Source: a virus. Taken from it: 64,000 bases of DNA. The position numbers and the translations under genes were made by a program. The stretch lies in the UHGV virus genome UHGV-0066004; one strand, written 5' to 3'. Of the stretch, positions 3,738-54,766 are shown piece by piece (position 1 is the first letter of the stretch; each line of letters starts with the position of its first letter). The notes under the pieces are model-generated. The model did no database searches and was not told the DNA's origin. It worked only from the letters and a program-made list of their open reading frames with translations.

Positions 3738-3780
3738 ACAAAAAAGGCTCCCGTAAAAAGGAGCCTTAAACTTTATTTTT
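3738..3780. terminator. bidirectional rho-independent terminator hairpin
   Basis: aaggctcc-N8-ggagcctt stem with A-run on one side and T-run on the other, between convergent genes. Confidence 0.6.
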
Positions 3781-4144
3781 CAGTATTCTTTGTGTTCTTC
3801 TCAGTAATAGCTTGCAAGGCTGATACTGATTGAGCCAGATTGTTCACACTGTCAGAGAATTTATCAAGAGTTTTGGTAAGTTTTGCGTTTTCACCCTTAA
3901 CGTTCTCTAACTGAACTTTCTGGTTCTCCATCCCTAGCTGAATCAGTCTCATGTCAGACTGTAAATCACGAATAGCTGAATAGTTACTTTTGGAATAATT
4001 ATCTAGCTGCTGTAACTTTGTTGTGACAGACACTTCTTGTTTACCACTTGAAACTTGCATCGTGGTATACATCCCAATAACACTAAAAATACCAACTACA
4101 ATTGCACCAATATTATTTTTAAAAGCTTCCTCTAGCCACTTCAT
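3773..4144 (-). CDS. hypothetical membrane-anchored coiled-coil protein
   Basis: 123 aa; N-terminal hydrophobic segment IGAIVVGIFSVIGMYTTM then coiled-coil-like sequence. Confidence 0.5.
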   Translation of the reverse strand: MKWLEEAFKNNIGAIVVGIFSVIGMYTTMQVSSGKQEVSVTTKLQQLDNYSKSNYSAIRDLQSDMRLIQLGMENQKVQLENVKGENAKLTKTLDKFSDSVNNLAQSVSALQAITEKNTKNTEK

Positions 4145-4339
4145 TTATTTCTCCCCCTTAAAAGCTTTTTCTAAGTTATCTACGAACTCATCATCAATAG
4201 GCGTGTCTGTTTTACTCGCAAGGTATCTTGCAAGCTTAAAGAACACTTTCTCAATCATGTATTCACTTAGAAGGGATAAAATGAGTTTCCAGAAGAAGCT
4301 ACCTAGATTTTTTAGAAGAATTGCTAGGATTGTAGGCAT
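4145..4339 (-). CDS. hypothetical small membrane protein
   Basis: 64 aa, hydrophobic N-terminus. Confidence 0.4.
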   Translation of the reverse strand: MPTILAILLKNLGSFFWKLILSLLSEYMIEKVFFKLARYLASKTDTPIDDEFVDNLEKAFKGEK

Positions 4340-4418
4340 TTAATCACCTCATCAGCCAAGATGGTGAGAATACCCATAAAGAATATTAACACCATCTTAA
4401 CAATCAGTCAATAAGGGA

Positions 4419-6812
4419 TTAAGCAGTTCTTACCCAAGCCATTAACTTGTAGAACTGGTTAGTAACACTAAATGCTGAACCAGAACCTGTACCACCAGTG
4501 TTACCACTAACTGTATGGGTGTGAGCACCAATACCTACAGAGTGGGTGTGAGCACCAGTGTTACTTGTAGTACCAGACCATGTGTGTGTATGGTTACCAG
4601 TCGTGTTAGTGTTAGGGAACTTGTTATCAGTTCTGTCAAGCCAGTCAAGAGTTCTCGTCTTGTTATTGCTAACAGTTGTATAACCGTACTGAGCATCACC
4701 ACCATTAACCAATAGCAGACCTAAGTGGTGAGCGTGGTTACCAGCAGCACTTGTTGTACCACTTACAGAGTGAGTATGACCACCAGTGCTATTAGTGCTC
4801 TTCGTACCATAATCAAAAGATGAAGTGGTAGCAGAGAAACTATGGGTGTGTGATGGTAAGTTACCAACAGCTAACGTCACAGAATCTGAACCACCTGTTG
4901 TAGCAACATCTGAACCGTTTGCTGCTGCAATTCTGATAGTTCTACCAACACCATTATTCAGGTACGTCCAAGTTAACCCAGGAAGTGCTGTATTGGGGTC
5001 AACATTACTGTTAAACCACGTTACAATACCTACTGGATAGATTTTATTCAGGTCTGTAGAGTCACTAATTGCTTCTGCAATCTTCTGGTCAGTTTCAGCT
5101 TTAGTGTATGCACCAATTTCTGAAGGGGTTGGTTTATCTTGGTCTGTATAGATTTTAGACCATGCCTTCTCAAAACCATACCCATCTCGTGCAGTCCTGT
5201 AAAAAACACCACCATTCCTGTAGATAAACTTAAACTGTGCAGATGGTGTTGAGCCACCACCAATAAACATCTGATAAACTAGTTGTGATGCACCCCCAGT
5301 TTTCATTGTAACATTATACAGACCAGTTCTAGCATTCCAAGCAATACCATCCCCATCACCAACCTCTGTACCATTGCCAGTAGAGATAGCATACATGTAC
5401 CTATAGTCTGCGGTAGATTGCGTGTAATATCTAGCATCTAAGTTAGAGAAATCAGAAGGTTGAACTTGACCAGTAATGGCTAAATTCTTATTCGCAACAA
5501 TTGCTGATGGTTCAAGGGCAATTTGAGTACCAGAGTAACTATTGTTTAAGGTTACCACATTAGAGTTTGGGCCACCTACACCTAACCACCACCTCGATAC
5601 GTTCGCGGTATCCACACCACGGATATATAGTGGTTGACCTTGTGTTAAGTTTTTTAATACTAAGCCTTCATTATTTGATACAATAGTCTGCACATTCACG
5701 AAAGTGTTAGACACATTAATCTTAGCAAGATTATTCAAAGTAGCTGCTGGAATGTATCTAGAGTCAATGTTAGTCCAATCAGATGGTTGAATTTGACCAG
5801 TGATTTTTACACTCTTGTTAAATGTAGCACCAGACGAGTTTAAGACAATTGAGGTATTGCCCTTGTAATCGTAAAATGTGATATTGTCATTTGCATCACC
5901 TTTACCGATATACCACAGATTATTGTTTTCAACATCTTTTGCTAGGATGAACAAAGACTCATTAACAGCTTTATTTTTTAGCATGATAGCAGCAGCATTA
6001 GAGCTAACACTAACATAGTTGCTGAAGGTGTTTAAACCACTAAAAGTGTTATTCGCAGTTAACTGTGCAAACCTATGATTAGCAACTGTCTGAGTGAAGT
6101 ATCTAGCATCTAAGTTAGAGAAGTCAGAAGGCTGAACTTGACCCATGACTCTTAGTGTCTTGTTAAATGACGCTGTTGCGTTAAGGATTAACATTGAGCC
6201 AGTGGCACGATTGTACAGATAAACATTAGTGTTGTTTGCATTTCTCTGTCCAACATACCACGTTTGCTGGTTATTAGCATCTCTACCCTGAATATATGAA
6301 GCTCCTGCATTAGTTGCTTTCTTAAGAGTTAACTGCTCACCATCAACGACAATTGCTTGCCTAATGTTGAAGTTATTTGTTACAGCCAACCTTGCATATC
6401 TTGCATCATTCTCTTTATTAGTTCTCATCCCAAGTTCATTAGGACTTGGTTTATTCAGAGTATGATAAACAGTTGCTGACCTTGAAGCATCTGCAATAGT
6501 TAGCCTAAGACCATTTGCGTTAATTTTAAAAGTCTTTAAAACATCCCCAATATTAATCTCAGAAGAGCCTGTTGGGTCAAATACTGCCTTACCACCATAA
6601 AGTAACTTAACAATCCCTAAGTCACCCGTCATAGTGCTACCAGCAATCTGAACAAATCTTTCAAGTTTAAAAGATGCTAAGAAGTCTTGATAGGTCATTC
6701 GACGGTCTTCATCACCCAGCATTTCAGGTCTCTTTTTAACTCTGACATGAAGAAGGTCATCTGAACGGATTGTATCGATTGAGTTTAACTCACTCAACTT
6801 GTAATCTGCCAT
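4419..6812 (-). CDS. tail fiber protein (large)
   Basis: 797 aa; three internal repeats of G-Q-[VI]-Q-P-S-D-[FW]-[ST]-N-[LI]-D-[AS]-R-Y; His-x-His-rich C-terminus; distal to baseplate genes. Confidence 0.8.
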
Positions 6813-29136: not shown

Positions 29137-29694
29137 TTACTTTCTCAGTGGATGAATAAAGAATGCCAACATAACTCTTTCCCTTGAGAATGCTCTTTCT
29201 TCTGGGACAACACTTTTTAGTTTCCATCCAATATAAATTCTCCAGTAAAATTGTTTACCAAAGATTTTAATTGATGGGATAAAAGCGAATAATCCCCAAG
29301 CATTACTGTTCCACATTAGGAGATAACCTGTCTGATTATCTTCAGGGTCAGAACTTACGTTGATATTACCTTTCCACTTAGTAACATCTTTTACATCTCT
29401 TCCTAATACATGGTAAGAGAAGTTATAAGCTTTGTTTCTCCAGAGCCATCCGACTCTTTGCATGTAGACACCTAGTTTACCAATCCATCTGATATTAGCC
29501 CATCTTTTAACGTGACCTTCATCACCATCAATTGGGTTGTCATATGTCTCCATCCATCTGAACCCGAAAGGTAAGTGTCCTTTCTTCTCACTGTAGAATG
29601 GAACTACGAAAGGTGCTAAGATAACTGCTAGTATTGCTGCAAGTGGTTCTAGCAAAGCTAAGAAAATCCATGAAGCATATTTTAAGTATCTCAT
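29137..29694 (-). CDS. hypothetical membrane protein
   Basis: 185 aa; hydrophobic N-terminus, Trp-rich. Confidence 0.5.
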   Translation of the reverse strand: MRYLKYASWIFLALLEPLAAILAVILAPFVVPFYSEKKGHLPFGFRWMETYDNPIDGDEGHVKRWANIRWIGKLGVYMQRVGWLWRNKAYNFSYHVLGRDVKDVTKWKGNINVSSDPEDNQTGYLLMWNSNAWGLFAFIPSIKIFGKQFYWRIYIGWKLKSVVPEERAFSRERVMLAFFIHPLRK

Positions 29695-36213: not shown

Positions 36214-36585
36214 ATGAAGGCTAAGAGTGCAAAAGACTTTTATTGCTTCCTACAATCCTATATCAATTCCGTGAAAAATGGTGAAAGATACAATCTTAAT
36301 GATGTTATCCCAACACCTTTGACATGGAGACTCAGTAAATGGCCTGAAGAAGATATTACACCAACAAGAGAACAACGCACCTACAAACCTGAAATCAACA
36401 TTCCAGATTCTGAGAATCTATTATATCCAATGTTCCATATTGTTGGTCTTGGAAGATTCCTTATGGATATCCAGTATGTAATTGGTAAAGGTTATAAGGT
36501 TAAAGGCATTGTTGTTGGTGATGTATCTCCGCATCACAAAGGTTATTTTAGACTAAACGCACATTTAGAGGCTAAAAAGAAATGA
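36214..36585 (+). CDS. hypothetical protein, paralog of N-terminal domain of the next gene
   Basis: 123 aa; shares KRY...WPE...DI...YKP...LLY...FLMD[IL]QY pattern with residues 1-120 of the downstream ORF. Confidence 0.55.
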   Translation: MKAKSAKDFYCFLQSYINSVKNGERYNLNDVIPTPLTWRLSKWPEEDITPTREQRTYKPEINIPDSENLLYPMFHIVGLGRFLMDIQYVIGKGYKVKGIVVGDVSPHHKGYFRLNAHLEAKKK

Positions 36586-37715
36586 TTAAAGCAAAGACTT
36601 ACCCAGACTTCAAAGAGTTTGTGAAGGGCTTCATTGCAAATGTAAAGGCTGGTAAGAGATATGATTTTAGAACATATCAAGAGGCTATTTTACCACTCAC
36701 CTATAGTTCATATTGGCCTGAAGCTGATATTGCAGAAGTTGAGAAGTTTGACTACAAACCAGACTACAAAGTTCCATTTAGTGATGAGTTGCTTTACAGC
36801 GTTGGTGCTCAAATGAGAACGTCTGACTTCTTCATGGACTTACAATATGCAATTATCAATGGTAAAGACGTTGATACAGTTTATTGTGAATGGCTGGCAA
36901 GAGTTAAACCGTTCTCAATGTTGAATGCTAAGTTGAAGGATGCTATCAAGCCACCATCAATCACTCAGCAACCAACCAATCAAACAGTAAATGAAGGGGG
37001 TACACTTACCCTAATCGTTATTGCAACTAATGCCACTGGATATCAATGGAAAAAGGATGGTGAGGACATCCCTAGTGCCAATTCTGCAACTTACACAAAA
37101 CAGTCAGTAGCACCTTCTGACGCTGGTTCATACACTTGTGTTGTATCTGGAGAGGGTGGAACAAGTGTTACCTCAGATGCAGCAACAGTGACTGTGAACG
37201 CACTACCTGTGATTACACAACAACCTTCTAGCCAGACCATCAATGAGGGTGGAAACATCAGCTTGGAAGTGACTGCAACGGGTGCAACGGGTTACCAGTG
37301 GAAGAAAGATGGCTCTGACATTCCTTCAGCGACAAATGCTACCTATAGCAAGTCTGGTGCTCTGCCAGCAGATGCAGGTTCATACACTTGCGTTGTAACA
37401 GGTGCAGGTGGTTCTGTTACTTCTAGCCCTGCAACAGTTACTGTGAATGCACTTCCGGTAATCACTCAGCAACCAACCAATCAAGAAATCACTGAAGGTG
37501 AGACCTTAACACTGAATGTTGTGGCAACAGGTGCGACAGGTTATCAGTGGAAGAAAGGGGAGGAAGACATCCTCGATGCAACTACTGCAACTTACACCAA
37601 AGAAGGTGCAACCACTGCTGATGCAGGAAGCTACACCTGTGTAGTGACTGGCGCAGGTGGCTCTGTAACATCTAATGCGGCAACAGTTACAGTTAACCCA
37701 GCAGGGGAGGCATAA
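36582..37715 (+). CDS. Ig-like repeat protein (three tandem domains)
   Basis: 377 aa; three ~85-aa repeats each with TGYQWKKDG ... ATY ... DAGSYTCVV ... TVTVN. Confidence 0.7.
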   Translation: MIKAKTYPDFKEFVKGFIANVKAGKRYDFRTYQEAILPLTYSSYWPEADIAEVEKFDYKPDYKVPFSDELLYSVGAQMRTSDFFMDLQYAIINGKDVDTVYCEWLARVKPFSMLNAKLKDAIKPPSITQQPTNQTVNEGGTLTLIVIATNATGYQWKKDGEDIPSANSATYTKQSVAPSDAGSYTCVVSGEGGTSVTSDAATVTVNALPVITQQPSSQTINEGGNISLEVTATGATGYQWKKDGSDIPSATNATYSKSGALPADAGSYTCVVTGAGGSVTSSPATVTVNALPVITQQPTNQEITEGETLTLNVVATGATGYQWKKGEEDILDATTATYTKEGATTADAGSYTCVVTGAGGSVTSNAATVTVNPAGEA

Positions 37716-38179
37716 TGCAACTCTCAAGAAAAGGTTTAGAAGCTATTAAGTTCTTTGAAGGTCTTAAGCTGGAGGCTTACGAAGATTCTGCTGGAATCCC
37801 TACAATTGGGTATGGGACAATCCGTATTGCTGGTAAACCTGTTAAGATGGGTATGAGAATCACGGCTGAACAAGCTGAACAGTATCTTCTCGCAGATGTT
37901 GAAAAGTTCGTTGCAGCAGTGAACAAAGCCATCAAGGTTCCAACTTCTCAGAACGAGTTTGATGCACTTGTAAGTGAAACATACAACATTGGCATCACAG
38001 CTATGCAGGACTCTACATTTATCAAGCGCCACAACGATGGTAATAAGGTCGGTTGTGCAGAAGCTATGCAATGGTGGAACAAGGTTACAGTCAAAGGTAA
38101 GAAGGTCACTTCAAACGGCCTGAAAAACAGACGTAGAATGGAAGCTGACATTTATCTTGACAGTGTATATCCAAAGTAA
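37715..38179 (+). CDS. endolysin (T4-type lysozyme)
   Basis: 154 aa; N-terminal motif EGLKLEAYEDSAGIPTIGYGT. Confidence 0.8.
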   Translation: MQLSRKGLEAIKFFEGLKLEAYEDSAGIPTIGYGTIRIAGKPVKMGMRITAEQAEQYLLADVEKFVAAVNKAIKVPTSQNEFDALVSETYNIGITAMQDSTFIKRHNDGNKVGCAEAMQWWNKVTVKGKKVTSNGLKNRRRMEADIYLDSVYPK

Positions 38180-40839: not shown

Positions 40840-41054
40840 AAAAGTTAACTACAGTTGAAGATTACTACAAACTTTCCCTGTTAGAACAGTATCGCAGAAG
40901 CCAGAATATCAGAAAATGCTATGGTAAGCACGCTGAAGGTGACTTTTACCACTGCTATGATGCAGATTTAAAAGGCGTAACGCCTAGAGGGAAAGTTCTG
41001 CAAAGATTTGTTGACCTTGAGTGGAACAAACGATTGAGAGGGGTTGGGAAATGA
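40836..41054 (+). CDS. hypothetical protein
   Basis: 72-aa ORF. Confidence 0.4.
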   Translation: MKKLTTVEDYYKLSLLEQYRRSQNIRKCYGKHAEGDFYHCYDADLKGVTPRGKVLQRFVDLEWNKRLRGVGK

Positions 41055-41554
41055 TTTACGAAGAAAGATACAAAATAGATTACCAGAAGACTGGTCATCA
41101 TACTTCTTTAAAAGTAACCAAACCAAATGGAGATACCGGTATCATAGCACATTTTGGTGGTGATTATTGGTACGGTACAGGTTGCTTTGAGGGCTACAGT
41201 CAAGAATACTTGAAAGCTTTCTACAGAGACTTTACAAACGACTACAACAGGGTTGTTGACGAAAAGAACAAGTGTATTAAGCATGAACACCATGCAAGAG
41301 GCTGCCTAAGTATTGTTATGGTACTGGCGTTCTTCTTAGCAATGTTACTGGCAGTATCAGCAATTAGCTGCATAGCTCAAGATTTGACAATTACACAGAT
41401 TACTACAAAGATACACGATATCTGGTACTTGTATGCTGTTCCTTTAGCTGGTATTATCATCTCACTAGTAAGATTCAGAGTTCATAAGAAACGACTTAAG
41501 GACTCTGAGGTTAAACTTGAAGAGGTAAGTAAAGAATGCAACCTACAATTATAG
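41051..41554 (+). CDS. hypothetical membrane protein
   Basis: track ORF 41021..41554 with start moved to ATG 41051 (ATGA overlap); two C-terminal hydrophobic segments. Confidence 0.5.
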   Translation: MIYEERYKIDYQKTGHHTSLKVTKPNGDTGIIAHFGGDYWYGTGCFEGYSQEYLKAFYRDFTNDYNRVVDEKNKCIKHEHHARGCLSIVMVLAFFLAMLLAVSAISCIAQDLTITQITTKIHDIWYLYAVPLAGIIISLVRFRVHKKRLKDSEVKLEEVSKECNLQL

Positions 41555-51937: not shown

Positions 51938-52238
51938 AGTTTACCTTCTCAGTTAGTTCATATAAATCAACATGCTCAATACTGTCAATGTTGATATCAA
52001 TCTTTTTGAAACGCTCCATCACTTCGTTATCAGTCATCCATATCAGACACCAATGATTCTGGATGGATTCTTCAAGAAGGTCAACACAATCTTTAAAGGT
52101 TTTTGTATCACTTCTTGTTCCTACTACTGCGATTGTTCCATATAGCCACTTACCATTGCCATAAGATACTTGTGCTACGCCAACTTCTTTACCTTTCTCA
52201 TAGTAAACGGCTACAAAGTCTCTTCCATTAATCTGCAT
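51912..52238 (-). CDS. hypothetical protein
   Basis: 108-aa ORF. Confidence 0.5.
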   Translation of the reverse strand: MQINGRDFVAVYYEKGKEVGVAQVSYGNGKWLYGTIAVVGTRSDTKTFKDCVDLLEESIQNHWCLIWMTDNEVMERFKKIDINIDSIEHVDLYELTEKVNYESNTSQR

Positions 52239-52240
52239 AG

Positions 52241-52510
52241 TTACTTCCTCGTTTTAAGAACTGCTAAGATTTCTTTAGAATCTGGTAAGAACCATGTGTA
52301 GTGATTCTCTTTGATTTCTGGATGAGTGTCAACCTTTATTTTGCACTCTTTACCAACATGTTTAAGCTGTGCTGTGACACCTTGCATAAAGATATGGCAC
52401 ATCACATTATCCATAATGGTTGGTGAGAAATCAATTCGCATATAAGTCTCTTTTGGTCGTGGTAACAGTAAGTATCCTTCTACGTAAAAAGTATCTTGAT
52501 TCTCTGTCAT
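52241..52510 (-). CDS. hypothetical protein
   Basis: 89-aa ORF. Confidence 0.5.
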   Translation of the reverse strand: MTENQDTFYVEGYLLLPRPKETYMRIDFSPTIMDNVMCHIFMQGVTAQLKHVGKECKIKVDTHPEIKENHYTWFLPDSKEILAVLKTRK

Positions 52511-52776
52511 TGCTGCTTATTCCCTAATAAAATCATGTCAATAAGGTTGTTAGCTTTGATTGTGCACTGGTAAAAGCCGTCACGATAGAACTCAAGGGCT
52601 GCTGCTACATCGCTGCCTGTGTTGCCTTTGATGATATACCGTGATTCTTCTTGGGTGTACTTATCACCCTCACTTACTTGGGAGTTTTTGAATGTACTGC
52701 TCACTTTGTTCGTTGAACACCCTGACATAGTTATCAGTAACACAAACATTATAAAACTCTGGCTTAGTTTTTTCAT
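52507..52776 (-). CDS. putative lipoprotein (o-spanin-like candidate)
   Basis: 89 aa; signal peptide with lipobox-like MSGC; overlaps 3' end of upstream ORF out of frame. Confidence 0.4.
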   Translation of the reverse strand: MKKLSQSFIMFVLLITMSGCSTNKVSSTFKNSQVSEGDKYTQEESRYIIKGNTGSDVAAALEFYRDGFYQCTIKANNLIDMILLGNKQQ

Positions 52777-53017
52777 ATGTTAGTACCTCTTTTGTATGCT
52801 TATTCTTAGCAAGCACATCTTTCAAATCATTTTTGTAATTGGTGCTGAGTGTGGCTAAACCTTCCTGATAAGCATCTTTAGCAACACTTATTAGTTTCTC
52901 ATTATTTAGCTCAGTTTCAGCAACTTGATAGTCTCTGTAAGAGTATCCTCCCCAGACACCTGCACCAACTAAGAAAACAATTATGAAAGTAGCTTGACAG
53001 AACTCTTTAAATGTCAT
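52670..53017 (-). CDS. putative membrane-anchored coiled-coil protein (i-spanin-like candidate)
   Basis: 115 aa; N-terminal TM segment then helical region; overlapped by lipoprotein ORF. Confidence 0.4.
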   Translation of the reverse strand: MTFKEFCQATFIIVFLVGAGVWGGYSYRDYQVAETELNNEKLISVAKDAYQEGLATLSTNYKNDLKDVLAKNKHTKEVLTYEKTKPEFYNVCVTDNYVRVFNEQSEQYIQKLPSK

Positions 53018-53029
53018 TTAACAATCTCC

Positions 53030-53060
53030 TAAAATGAAAAAGGCTCCCGAAGGAGCCTGT
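53030..53060 (-). terminator. rho-independent terminator
   Basis: aggctcc-cgaa-ggagcct hairpin with U-run on minus strand. Confidence 0.6.
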
Positions 53061-53069
53061 ATCTTAACC

Positions 53070-53534
53070 TTAACCGAGGACTTTAGCAAGGATATTCGCA
53101 GCCATCGAAGAAGCTTTTGCAGCAGCAACTACGCCAGCTTTGACAGTGCTATCCTTAATAGCAGATACCGTTGCAGCATCAGTAAAGAGATAAGTGATTG
53201 TTTTAGAACCACTTGTAAAGGAAAGCATAAGAGTAGTTTCCAGATTGAAAGAGCGATACGGAGCACCTTCTTTAACGATACCTTCAGCACCTAACTCTGA
53301 AGCCTTGCCCATATCATAGATAGTCATCAGGTTTTCTTTGTGTGCTGTGGTTGAGCCAGAACCTTTTACGTGTTTCTTAACATTCAAAAGAGCACGATAC
53401 TCTCGGATGTTACCGTCTGCTTTTACGTTGACAGCACGGAAAATTTTACCCTCAAAGTTGCTCTTGATAATGTTACGAACTACTTCAGATTTGTTTGCCG
53501 TAACGTCCAGTGCTACCGTAATGATATTGTTCAT
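53070..53534 (-). CDS. hypothetical protein
   Basis: 154-aa ORF followed by terminator. Confidence 0.55.
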   Translation of the reverse strand: MNNIITVALDVTANKSEVVRNIIKSNFEGKIFRAVNVKADGNIREYRALLNVKKHVKGSGSTTAHKENLMTIYDMGKASELGAEGIVKEGAPYRSFNLETTLMLSFTSGSKTITYLFTDAATVSAIKDSTVKAGVVAAAKASSMAANILAKVLG

Positions 53535-53544
53535 AAGTTTTCTC

Positions 53545-54240
53545 TCAATGTTTAACTAACATGGTTTTGATGTGTGGAAGTATTCTGTTCACCTTCTGCA
53601 CATTCTTCTCTGTGTCTTCTATAAAACATACTATATTAAAGTAAGGCAGAATACAAGACTGAATCATCCTCACTTTCAAACTTTCTGCACTTATAGAGTT
53701 AGTCCCAAAACCACGCATAAAAAGCATGTAGTCATGCTCTGTGTTATGCCTTAAAAACATCTCAGTAGGTATTCTCTGAGATTCACCTCTCGCTGTCAAG
53801 AGTCCAATGGCAGCATGATTAGCAATTGCATCAATAATACTAAAGACATACGTTGGTTTTGCTCTTACAGAGTCAAGAAGATTAGTGTACTGTGAGAATG
53901 ACCCATCAGTCAATTCCGTTGAGCAATCTTCGTGATTAAAATTTGTAAGAACACCATCAATATCTGCTAAGATGAGGTTACCTTTTTCTACAAGGTCTTT
54001 ATTGACTATGACTAAGCTATCACGACTTACACCTATAGTTTGTCCAGTCTCTTTATCTACAACATTCACAATTGGCTCTGATGTGTGGAACTCTTCGAGT
54101 GAACATACAACTTCTCTTGCAGTGTCTTCAAAATCCCTACACTGTTCTGGAGTCCATACACAGGAATCAAGACCTAACTCATGAGGATGTAAGTCGTAAG
54201 CATGACACAGTACTTCATCAGACTTTTTTAATTTTTTCAT
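53545..54240 (-). CDS. putative HAD-family hydrolase/phosphatase
   Basis: 231 aa; LILADIDGVLTNF matches HAD motif I (DxDG). Confidence 0.5.
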   Translation of the reverse strand: MKKLKKSDEVLCHAYDLHPHELGLDSCVWTPEQCRDFEDTAREVVCSLEEFHTSEPIVNVVDKETGQTIGVSRDSLVIVNKDLVEKGNLILADIDGVLTNFNHEDCSTELTDGSFSQYTNLLDSVRAKPTYVFSIIDAIANHAAIGLLTARGESQRIPTEMFLRHNTEHDYMLFMRGFGTNSISAESLKVRMIQSCILPYFNIVCFIEDTEKNVQKVNRILPHIKTMLVKH

Positions 54241-54766
54241 GGTTTACCTTAGAAATGTTTATTGCAAATTCACATTGAGCAATGACTTTCATGTTGTTAT
54301 AGACATCTTGAGAATATTTCTTAGCTTTAGGGATTTTGTACGAATACCCAGCATTATATGATGCTAAAACTTTTTGTAAAGTCTTCTTTGACTTTGGCTG
54401 ACCATGCACCTTTGTCCAAAACTCAAGCTCTTTGTGAGTTTCCTTCGCAGCATAGTCAAAGTCTTTTAAGAGTTTCTTTTTAGCCACATTAGGACTAATT
54501 TTGTTACGCTTTACAACAGTCTTCAAGTGATTCTGGAAGATACCATAATCATGTGTCTTTTTATTCTCTACCTTCAGACCTAACTCTGACTCTTGTAAGG
54601 CTATAGCAGCTAGAGTGATACCCCAACCTTTACCCATGTTATTCTCACCATACTGGTAAGCTTTTAACATGTTTACTTTTTGGCTAATTGATAGCTCTGG
54701 GCAGTCAACTGCATAAGATAAGTGTGCTGTAAACATTAAGCACAAACCTAGAATCAATTTCTTCAT
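54218..54766 (-). CDS. putative secreted lytic transglycosylase-like protein
   Basis: 182 aa; signal peptide; ALQESELG ... DYGIFQ resembles SLT catalytic motif. Confidence 0.5.
   Translation of the reverse strand: MKKLILGLCLMFTAHLSYAVDCPELSISQKVNMLKAYQYGENNMGKGWGITLAAIALQESELGLKVENKKTHDYGIFQNHLKTVVKRNKISPNVAKKKLLKDFDYAAKETHKELEFWTKVHGQPKSKKTLQKVLASYNAGYSYKIPKAKKYSQDVYNNMKVIAQCEFAINISKVNHEKIKKV

Follow-up and report, generated by a model that had tools for sequence, protein, structure and literature searches.

An overlapping gene pair in a Felixounavirus genome very probably encodes the two-component spanin of Felix O1-like phages

Two overlapping open reading frames (ORFs) of 115 and 89 amino acids (aa) in the virus genome UHGV-0066004 very probably encode the two-component spanin of a Felix O1-like myophage. 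The ORFs lie on the minus strand of the 64,000-nucleotide (nt) stretch of DNA that was analysed as a whole and is called the window below. The 115-aa ORF (positions 52670..53017) encodes a predicted type II inner-membrane protein, the i-spanin, and the 89-aa ORF (52507..52776) encodes a predicted lipoprotein, the o-spanin. Membrane and lipoprotein signals are present in the respective proteins, the two genes share a dual-coding region and are inherited together, and both correspond to catalogued Felix O1 spanins. The pair is therefore already known, and it is ordinary for Felix O1-like phages.

The window belongs to the genus Felixounavirus and has 97-98% nucleotide identity to Escherichia phage ekra and to Felixounavirus LF82P isolates. 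Positions 52000-53600, which include the gene pair, have matches in 258 phage records. The hosts of the window's relatives are Escherichia, Salmonella, Shigella, and Citrobacter, which places the pair in phages of Gram-negative bacteria, as the definition of a two-component spanin (Summer et al. 2007; Kongari et al. 2018) demands. At exactly the same position, i-spanin and o-spanin labels are found in phages ekra, VSe11, finno, allfine, and humlepung, as well as in many other records, and they are annotated at the corresponding position in phage Moogle. In the spanin catalogue of Kongari et al. 2018 (PMC6139136), protein p014 of Felix O1 is listed as a 115-aa i-spanin (supplement), and its partner is an 89-aa o-spanin of the class “ovl,” with an overlap of 107 nt that amounts to 0.307 of the i-spanin gene. 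The same family in that catalogue also covers phages wV8, Moogle, Mushroom, FSL SP-010, and UAB_Phi87. Of the 115 residues of the window's i-spanin, two depart from Felix O1 p014 (Q40E and V55A). Because of this near-identity to p014 and its 89-aa “ovl” partner, we equate the window pair with the catalogued Felix O1 spanin pair. The genes are the same, with equal lengths (115 and 89 aa), the same 107-nt overlap, the same genome neighbourhood, and a shared Shine-Dalgarno context (tttttcattt.AGGAGattgttaa). There is no difference of substance between the two pairs, and the window carries an allelic variant in another Felixounavirus isolate.

The i-spanin gene is preceded by a Shine-Dalgarno sequence, AGGAG (53026..53030, minus strand), located 8 nt before the ATG and listed for Felix O1 too (Kongari supplement). 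Its product has a sole hydrophobic segment at residues 6-24 (nt 52946-53002, minus strand), with a Kyte-Doolittle mean of 1.75 over 19 residues, which bears out the one N-terminal transmembrane segment that a sequence-only reading of this DNA had assigned to the 115-aa ORF. The protein is without a lipobox, and the approximately 90 aa after the transmembrane segment would constitute a periplasmic domain. The positive-inside rule is uninformative for this protein, which has K4 and E5 before the segment and R28 and D29 after it. The putative periplasmic domain contains a single cysteine, Cys92, within the conserved block EKTKPxFYNxC..D.Y...FNE. Invariant across the family are residues G24, L65, E82, K83, F88, N90, C92, Y97, F101, and N102. 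The i-spanin matches phrog_1152, labelled “Rz-like spanin,” at 8e-42. An AlphaFold2 model built from a shallow alignment, of low confidence (pLDDT 60.6), suggests that the ectodomain is mostly helical, and the periplasmic domain is predicted to be 66% helix in the published catalogue, where Pepcoil did not predict a coiled coil in the i-spanin of Felix O1 (Kongari et al. 2018 and its supplement, PMC6139136). The helical periplasmic part put forward in the sequence-only reading thus keeps the standing of a prediction, its basis being a low-confidence model and published predictions. Among solved structures, a sequence search with the i-spanin returned nothing (best E = 0.82), and a search of NCBIfam gave one spurious sub-threshold match.

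The o-spanin gene has a Shine-Dalgarno sequence of its own, AAGAGG (52786..52791, minus strand), which lies within the i-spanin coding sequence, its GAGG core ending 9 nt before the ATG. The N-terminus of the 89-aa protein reads MKKLSQSFIMFVLLITMSG followed by CSTNK, and it combines a basic n-region, a hydrophobic core, and a lipobox that fits the PROSITE-type rule; the lipoprotein-type signal of the earlier reading is upheld in this respect. The predicted signal peptide comprises residues 1-19 and ends in the lipobox TMSG-C, in which the cysteine is Cys20 (codon at 52717-52719, minus strand) and the residue at +2 is Ser21. The +2 sorting rule for lipoproteins is established, and, because this position is occupied by Ser and not by Asp, the o-spanin is predicted to be sorted to the outer membrane. 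The mature protein would have 70 aa and contains no proline. Its single Cys71 is situated in the conserved block ALEFYRDxFYxC...NxLID. The AlphaFold2 model of the o-spanin, also from a shallow alignment and of low confidence (pLDDT 52.6), suggests a disordered linker at residues 20-50 that is followed by a C-terminal helix; the published prediction for the periplasmic domain is 20% helix and 16% strand (Kongari et al. 2018, PMC6139136). Among PHROGs, the protein matches phrog_4180 at 1e-49 and, weakly, phrog_456 “Rz-like spanin” at 0.002. Its NCBIfam matches are sub-threshold and pair the N-terminus with lipoprotein signal regions. Across Pfam, NCBIfam, and PADLOC, no meaningful family was obtained for either the i-spanin or the o-spanin. 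Given a protein with a transmembrane domain, a lipobox followed by Ser at +2, adjacency of the two genes, a Gram-negative host, and periplasmic cysteines, we assign the pair to the class of two-component spanins.

The region shared by the two genes is 107 nt long (52670..52776, minus strand) and encodes, one frame apart, the i-spanin motif YEKTKPEFYNVC and the o-spanin signal peptide MKKLSQSFIMFV. Counted from the i-spanin start, the o-spanin ORF begins at nt 242, which puts it in the +1 frame, and it reaches 163 nt beyond the i-spanin stop (stop at 52670; o-spanin end at 52507). The sequence-only reading had correctly placed the 89-aa ORF out of frame at the 3′ end of the 115-aa ORF, and had described the arrangement as that of embedded, Rz/Rz1-type spanins. 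The spanin part of this description holds (phrog_1152, GenBank annotations, and Kongari et al. 2018), but homology to Rz/Rz1 does not, and, because the o-spanin extends 163 nt past the i-spanin stop, the architecture is “overlapped” and not “embedded.”

To what extent both frames are under selection can be read from the close relatives, for which we used 29 IMG/VR loci representing 28 distinct nucleotide versions, with the window counted. The lengths of 115 and 89 aa, the 107-nt overlap, the [MI]SGC lipobox, and the cysteines i-C92 and o-C71 are kept in all 29. Purifying selection acts on both frames. In the part that encodes only the i-spanin, pN/pS is 0.15 (pS = 0.37), and the proportion of variable third positions is 0.74. 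In the part that encodes only the o-spanin, pN/pS is 0.11 (pS = 0.55), and the proportion of variable third positions is 0.85. Within the overlap, pS drops from these single-coding values of 0.37-0.55 to 0.09 in the i-spanin frame and 0.065 in the o-spanin frame (pN/pS of 0.51 and 0.82, respectively), and the proportion of variable third positions is 0.28. Because of the purifying selection on the private parts and the collapse of synonymous change in the overlap, these are two real overlapping genes.

Beyond the close relatives, tblastn searches of phage genomes located the i-spanin in 403 records and the o-spanin in 336. The family extends to other Ounavirinae (Mooglevirus, Suspvirus, Hafnia phages, and Kolesnikvirus of Erwinia and Salmonella) and also to podoviral Gordonclarkvirinae, such as KBNP1711 and Bas93. 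A search of 5.8 billion proteins returned close relatives only, namely 23 o-spanins and 15 i-spanins. At five distant loci, where i-spanin identity is 26-38%, a 116-118-aa protein with an N-terminal transmembrane domain is overlapped in the +1 frame by an ORF of 86-98 aa, with 116-137 nt in common, and the lipobox of the latter (TSAC, MSSC, MSGC, or TASC) is followed by Ser in all five. Taken over all relatives examined, a lipobox of the form [MI]SGC, MSSC, TSAC, or TASC with Ser at +2 is present in 34 of 34. In each protein the family-invariant residues cluster in one block, which includes an invariant cysteine: EK..(K/Q)..F.N.C..(D/E).Y...FN at the C-terminus of the i-spanins and ALE(F/W)Y(R/Q)D..(Y/F)..C...N(G/N)L(I/L) in the o-spanins. 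The invariance of i-Cys92 and o-Cys71 across the family provides the periplasmic cysteines expected for a possible homotypic disulfide. All i-spanins of the family match phrog_1152 “Rz-like spanin,” and the o-spanins match phrog_4180 or phrog_2425, which PHROGs labels as “unknown function,” with weak matches to phrog_456 “Rz-like spanin.”

The +1 register is the same in Felix-, Moogle-, Kolesnik-, and Gordonclark-type phages, with the o-spanin ATG straddling the (Y/H)-E codons that precede the EK of the i-spanin. As a result of this fixed register, the most conserved block of the i-spanin and the signal peptide of the o-spanin share the same bases. In a Hafnia phage, the +1 frame is kept, and the o-spanin starts 7 codons further upstream, at another N-E-K. 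Judging from the conserved frame register, the pair is inherited, or transferred, as a unit.

The way in which the two proteins would act can be proposed by analogy with the spanins of lambda and T4 (PMC6139136). The N-terminal transmembrane segment would anchor the i-spanin in the inner membrane, leaving its mostly helical domain of approximately 90 aa exposed to the periplasm. The o-spanin would be exported, lipidated at Cys20, and cleaved by signal peptidase II, after which the Lol system would be expected to move it to the inner leaflet of the outer membrane, given that the +2 residue is Ser and not Asp. The two proteins may then bind each other through their conserved C-terminal blocks, and the resulting complex would cross the periplasm by way of the peptidoglycan meshwork; it would probably owe stability to dimers linked by disulfides at i-Cys92, o-Cys71, or both. 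Once the endolysin destroys the wall, the spanin complexes would be free to move and to change shape, and the freed complexes would fuse the inner and outer membranes, thereby removing the last barrier to virion release. Complex formation, the disulfides, and membrane fusion are all carried over from the two model phages. Our literature search found no published experiment on the Felix O1-type spanin family; spanin experiments have been done essentially all on lambda Rz/Rz1, with T4 complementation added by Kongari et al. 2018 (PMC6139136).

Compared with the paradigm systems, the window pair appears by its sequence to be a functional analogue and not a homologue of Rz/Rz1-type spanins. Neither protein matches the Pfam Rz or Rz1 families at E values up to 0.1, and no such match was obtained for ten members of the o-spanin family at E values up to 10. 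As in lambda Rz/Rz1, a periplasmic protein anchored by a transmembrane domain is combined with a small outer-membrane lipoprotein in the +1 frame, the predicted job is the same, and periplasmic cysteines are available for intermolecular disulfides. Unlike in lambda, where Rz1 is wholly inside Rz (embedded) and the lysis cassette is contiguous, the window pair is overlapped. Mature lambda Rz1 has approximately 40 aa and is proline-rich and unstructured (PMC6139136, in part general knowledge), whereas the mature o-spanin of the window, at 70 aa, is free of proline and has a conserved C-terminal block that is, according to the model, probably helical.

In its architecture the window pair resembles LysB/LysC of phage P2, in which the i-spanin is likewise a type II membrane protein and the o-spanin an outer-membrane lipoprotein. 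The P2 pair sits inside the lysis cassette, in contrast to the distance of 14.3 kb from the lysozyme in the window. Both pairs are overlapped: the o-spanin gene opens within the 3′ part of the i-spanin gene, out of frame with it, and ends only after its stop (classes as in PMC6139136). No sequence relation between the P2 and window pairs was detected, although one distant family member weakly matches the LysC family PF23793 (E = 0.15).

T4 offers a parallel in genome layout: lysis genes are dispersed, and, as in the window, the spanin genes (PseT.3/PseT.2) occupy an early-type region at a distance of one gene from a polynucleotide kinase/phosphatase gene (pseT in T4). The T4 proteins have 117 and 99 aa, compared with 115 and 89 aa in the window, and the T4 o-spanin is likewise not proline-rich and has predicted structure. 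The T4 genes differ in their separated architecture, with a 4-nt junction. BLASTP between the window and T4 proteins revealed no similarity (E = 18 for the i-spanins; E = 0.042 for the o-spanins, confined to the signal peptides), and the PHROGs are different (739 and 812 in T4 versus 1152 and 4180 in the window). PseT.3 has no periplasmic cysteine and PseT.2 has two (PMC6139136), whereas the window pair has one per subunit.

The gene encoding the endolysin, a 154-aa protein of the Phage_lysozyme family (PF00959, E = 1.8e-40; “endolysin” in Moogle), is found at 37715..38179 on the plus strand. It is separated from the spanin pair by 14.3 kb and is on the opposite strand, in agreement with the approximately 15 kb of the sequence-only reading. 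That reading had also remarked on the lack of a clear holin beside the endolysin, which is a known trait of Felix O1-like phages: published genome notes describe lysis genes that are scattered away from the endolysin, no adjacent holin, and an unclear holin (PMC4319497, PMC6486253, PMC3185647). Spanins distant from the lysozyme are the normal layout in these phages, as in T4. We scanned all window ORFs for hydrophobic segments and compared plausible membrane proteins with PHROGs and phage annotations, and obtained no match to a holin family. A single record attaches the name holin to one homologue of a 185-aa window protein.

Immediately upstream of the pair, a terminator scan identified a hairpin, AGGCTCC-TTCG-GGAGCCT, followed by the T-tract TTTTTCATTTT (53031..53058, minus strand; fold of -15.2 kcal/mol, z = -2.0). 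The hairpin lies between an upstream 154-aa ORF and the ribosome-binding site of the i-spanin, and a “terminator” is annotated at its position in phages ASO1A and Barry. Because there is no room for a promoter between the hairpin and the i-spanin, the spanins are probably expressed at a reduced level, from transcripts that read through the hairpin. Such a place, behind a terminator in an early-type region, would suit an early-acting function as well as a spanin.

Further upstream, 1.2 kb from the i-spanin, is the gene of a 182-aa protein (54218..54766, minus strand) with a signal peptide and motifs of SLT-type lytic transglycosylases, which we read from the sequence as E59-S60, G75-I-F-Q78, and S136-Y-N-A-G140. 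Its match to Pfam SLT (E = 0.0012, 18.8 bits) is under the cutoff of 21.3 bits, and its relatives are annotated as “putative lysin” (ekra) and “lytic transglycosylase domain-containing protein” (Hafnia phage SarahDanielle). This SLT-like protein is a candidate second muralytic enzyme, much nearer to the pair than the lysozyme. Across Ounavirinae, the genes form a conserved block in the order rIIA, rIIB, SLT-like, PNK-like, variable ORF(s), i-spanin, and o-spanin.

The conservation of this block raises the question of whether the two proteins form a periplasm-spanning complex that is not a fusion device and has another role in the envelope, be it the timing or inhibition of lysis together with the rII genes or the anchoring or activation of the SLT-like enzyme. 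We consider such a role improbable, even though no holin is established for Felix O1-like phages. Every structural hallmark of the pair fits the definition of a spanin. Moreover, in Gordonclarkvirinae the pair is found among early/middle genes, adjoining a sigma factor gene, and has neither rII nor SLT-like neighbours; its linkage to these genes is therefore not obligatory. We also looked for a lysis cassette beside the homologous pair in Gordonclarkvirinae and found none. The three-step lysis model leads one to expect a spanin in a phage with a Gram-negative host, and in the window we recognised no spanin candidate other than this pair.

The same block admits a more radical proposal, to which we assign a slim chance: Felix O1-like phages might lyse their hosts without a classical holin, the exported SLT-like enzyme attacking the wall from the periplasm and the spanin pair then finishing the disruption of the envelope. 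Under this proposal, the lysis module proper would be the stretch from rIIA to the spanins, with an accessory part left to the distant soluble lysozyme.

Superinfection exclusion, which the sequence-only reading had offered in place of lysis, found no real support. Here the lipoprotein, with or without its membrane partner, would mask a receptor or keep a second phage from adsorbing or from delivering its DNA; T5 Llp, phi80 Cor, and TP-J34 Ltp act in this way. The position of the genes in an early-type block (rIIA, rIIB, and PNK-like), and not beside the endolysin, is compatible with such a function, but the T4 spanins are likewise located in an early region. The o-spanin profile also matches PDB 4eqq, a “putative host cell surface-exposed lipoprotein” that we take to be the Ltp exclusion protein of phage TP-J34, through the motif QVSxSDKYTQEE; the match is weak (E = 0.015, stretches of 10 and 9 bits). 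This motif falls in the linker and is not conserved in the Kolesnikvirus and Gordonclarkvirinae homologues, and none of ten o-spanin family members matches an Ltp-type Pfam family at E values up to 10, one of them instead weakly matching PF23793, the Rz1-like LysC. Given that the motif is not conserved in the family and lacks Pfam support, we judge the 4eqq match to be due to chance. PADLOC, too, gave no match. The known exclusion lipoproteins come from single genes, and none is known to be tied to an overlapping gene for a type II membrane protein as its obligatory partner, which counts against an exclusion system. Finally, the pair is co-inherited in a fixed register by myoviruses and podoviruses of different subfamilies, a distribution that a general lysis function fits better than the masking of one receptor. 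We regard exclusion as very improbable. As a lesser and novel variant, the Ltp-like motif in the linker might, with a slim chance, give the lipoprotein a second role in superinfection exclusion, besides its role as an o-spanin.

That the 89-aa ORF is a chance ORF in an alternative frame and only the 115-aa gene is real has practically no probability, as the selection analysis rejects it (purifying selection on the private part and suppressed synonymous change in the overlap) and the ORF has its own Shine-Dalgarno sequence and is intact with its lipobox in 29 of 29 close and 5 of 5 distant relatives, even if gene callers often miss or truncate it. The o-spanin is annotated with 73 aa in ekra, and a public cluster of 303 members starts at Met17.

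Beyond its correct annotation, the pair matters little, being already in the published spanin catalogue and in many GenBank records. In public gene calls the o-spanin is frequently shortened or absent, so that automatically annotated Felixounavirus genomes still carry errors at this gene, and these genomes are used in phage therapy and biocontrol. Felix O1 itself is a classic diagnostic phage. Phage vB_Si_DR094, for example, was reported with an i-spanin only, but tblastn locates the o-spanin in its genome too.

Upstream of the spanin genes, on the minus strand, lies a gene (54218-54766) whose 182-aa SLT-like product may be an exported muralytic enzyme, in addition to the lysozyme. The protein has a signal peptide of the Sec type (MKKLILGLCLMFTAHLSYA|VD), as well as all three lytic-transglycosylase motifs (E59-S60, G75-I-F-Q78, and S136-Y-N-A-G140), which follow one another in the canonical order and at the canonical spacing. 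Its match to the Pfam SLT family (E = 0.0012) falls slightly below the cutoff, and the PHROG family to which it belongs, phrog_600, is labelled as being of unknown function. The gene is flanked by rIIB and a polynucleotide kinase (PNK)-like gene, with the spanin pair 1.2 kb downstream, and it keeps the same position throughout the Ounavirinae.

The neighboring PNK-like gene (53545-54240, minus strand) is annotated as "polynucleotide kinase" and encodes 231 aa, in which the sequence DIDGV near residue 93 forms a phosphatase motif of the HAD type. Because no P-loop was visible when the sequence was inspected, the protein may be a phosphatase only. In T4 and the Ounavirinae alike, the spanin pair is found one gene away from a pseT-like gene, but the order of the pair and the pseT-like gene differs between them.

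A homologous overlapped spanin pair is present in two phiEco32-like podoviruses of the Gordonclarkvirinae (3944-4439 in loci L034 and L035). There, the pair does not adjoin lysis genes; it is surrounded by early or middle genes, with a phage sigma factor gene directly downstream. The o-spanins of these two loci have two periplasmic cysteines, in comparison to one in the o-spanin of the window, and they are either left without annotation or mis-called as short hypothetical open reading frames (ORFs).

Mis-calls are also widespread in the public records of homologues of the window's o-spanin (52507-52776). In ekra, a close relative, the protein is annotated as 73 aa with a start at Met17 and lacks its signal peptide. 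The same truncation is seen in the public protein cluster P0009 (303 members), other public versions begin at residue 22, and in several genomes the gene is not annotated at all. For phage vB_Si_DR094, one paper reported the o-spanin as absent; contrary to that report, the gene was found intact by tblastn.

Elsewhere in the window, a 123-aa protein (3773-4144, minus strand) resembles an i-spanin in topology, with an N-terminal transmembrane domain (TMD) followed by coiled-coil-like sequence. Its weak match (E = 0.009) to phrog_739, the family of T4 PseT.3, is probably compositional.

Two further membrane proteins bear on the question of a holin. The first (185 aa; 29137-29694, minus strand), encoded in the tRNA region, has a single strong N-terminal TMD (residues 9 to 27, Kyte-Doolittle hydropathy 2.44) and is shared, at 55 to 60% identity, with numerous T4-like phages that infect Klebsiella, Enterobacter, and Escherichia. 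Only one record, that of Yersinia phage P8, calls a homologue "holin." The Mushroom genome note mentions a class-III holin for a Felix O1-like phage, and the one-TMD topology is common to both proteins. The second (177 aa; 41021-41554, plus strand) has two C-terminal TMDs (residues 94 to 112 and 134 to 152) and is encoded 2.8 kb downstream of the endolysin gene on the same strand. It falls into phrog_4343 (unknown), is annotated in relatives only as "membrane protein," and is at most a tentative holin candidate.

Ending at the endolysin start codon, a 377-aa ORF (36582-37715, plus strand) carries three tandem copies of a repeat unit of roughly 90 aa (…QQPxNQxxxEGxxLxLxVxATGATGYQWKKxGxDIPxAxxATYxKxxxxxxDAGSYTCVVxGxGGSVTSxxATVTVN). 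The repeats look like Ig-like domains, and the ekra homologue is annotated as "putative tail protein."
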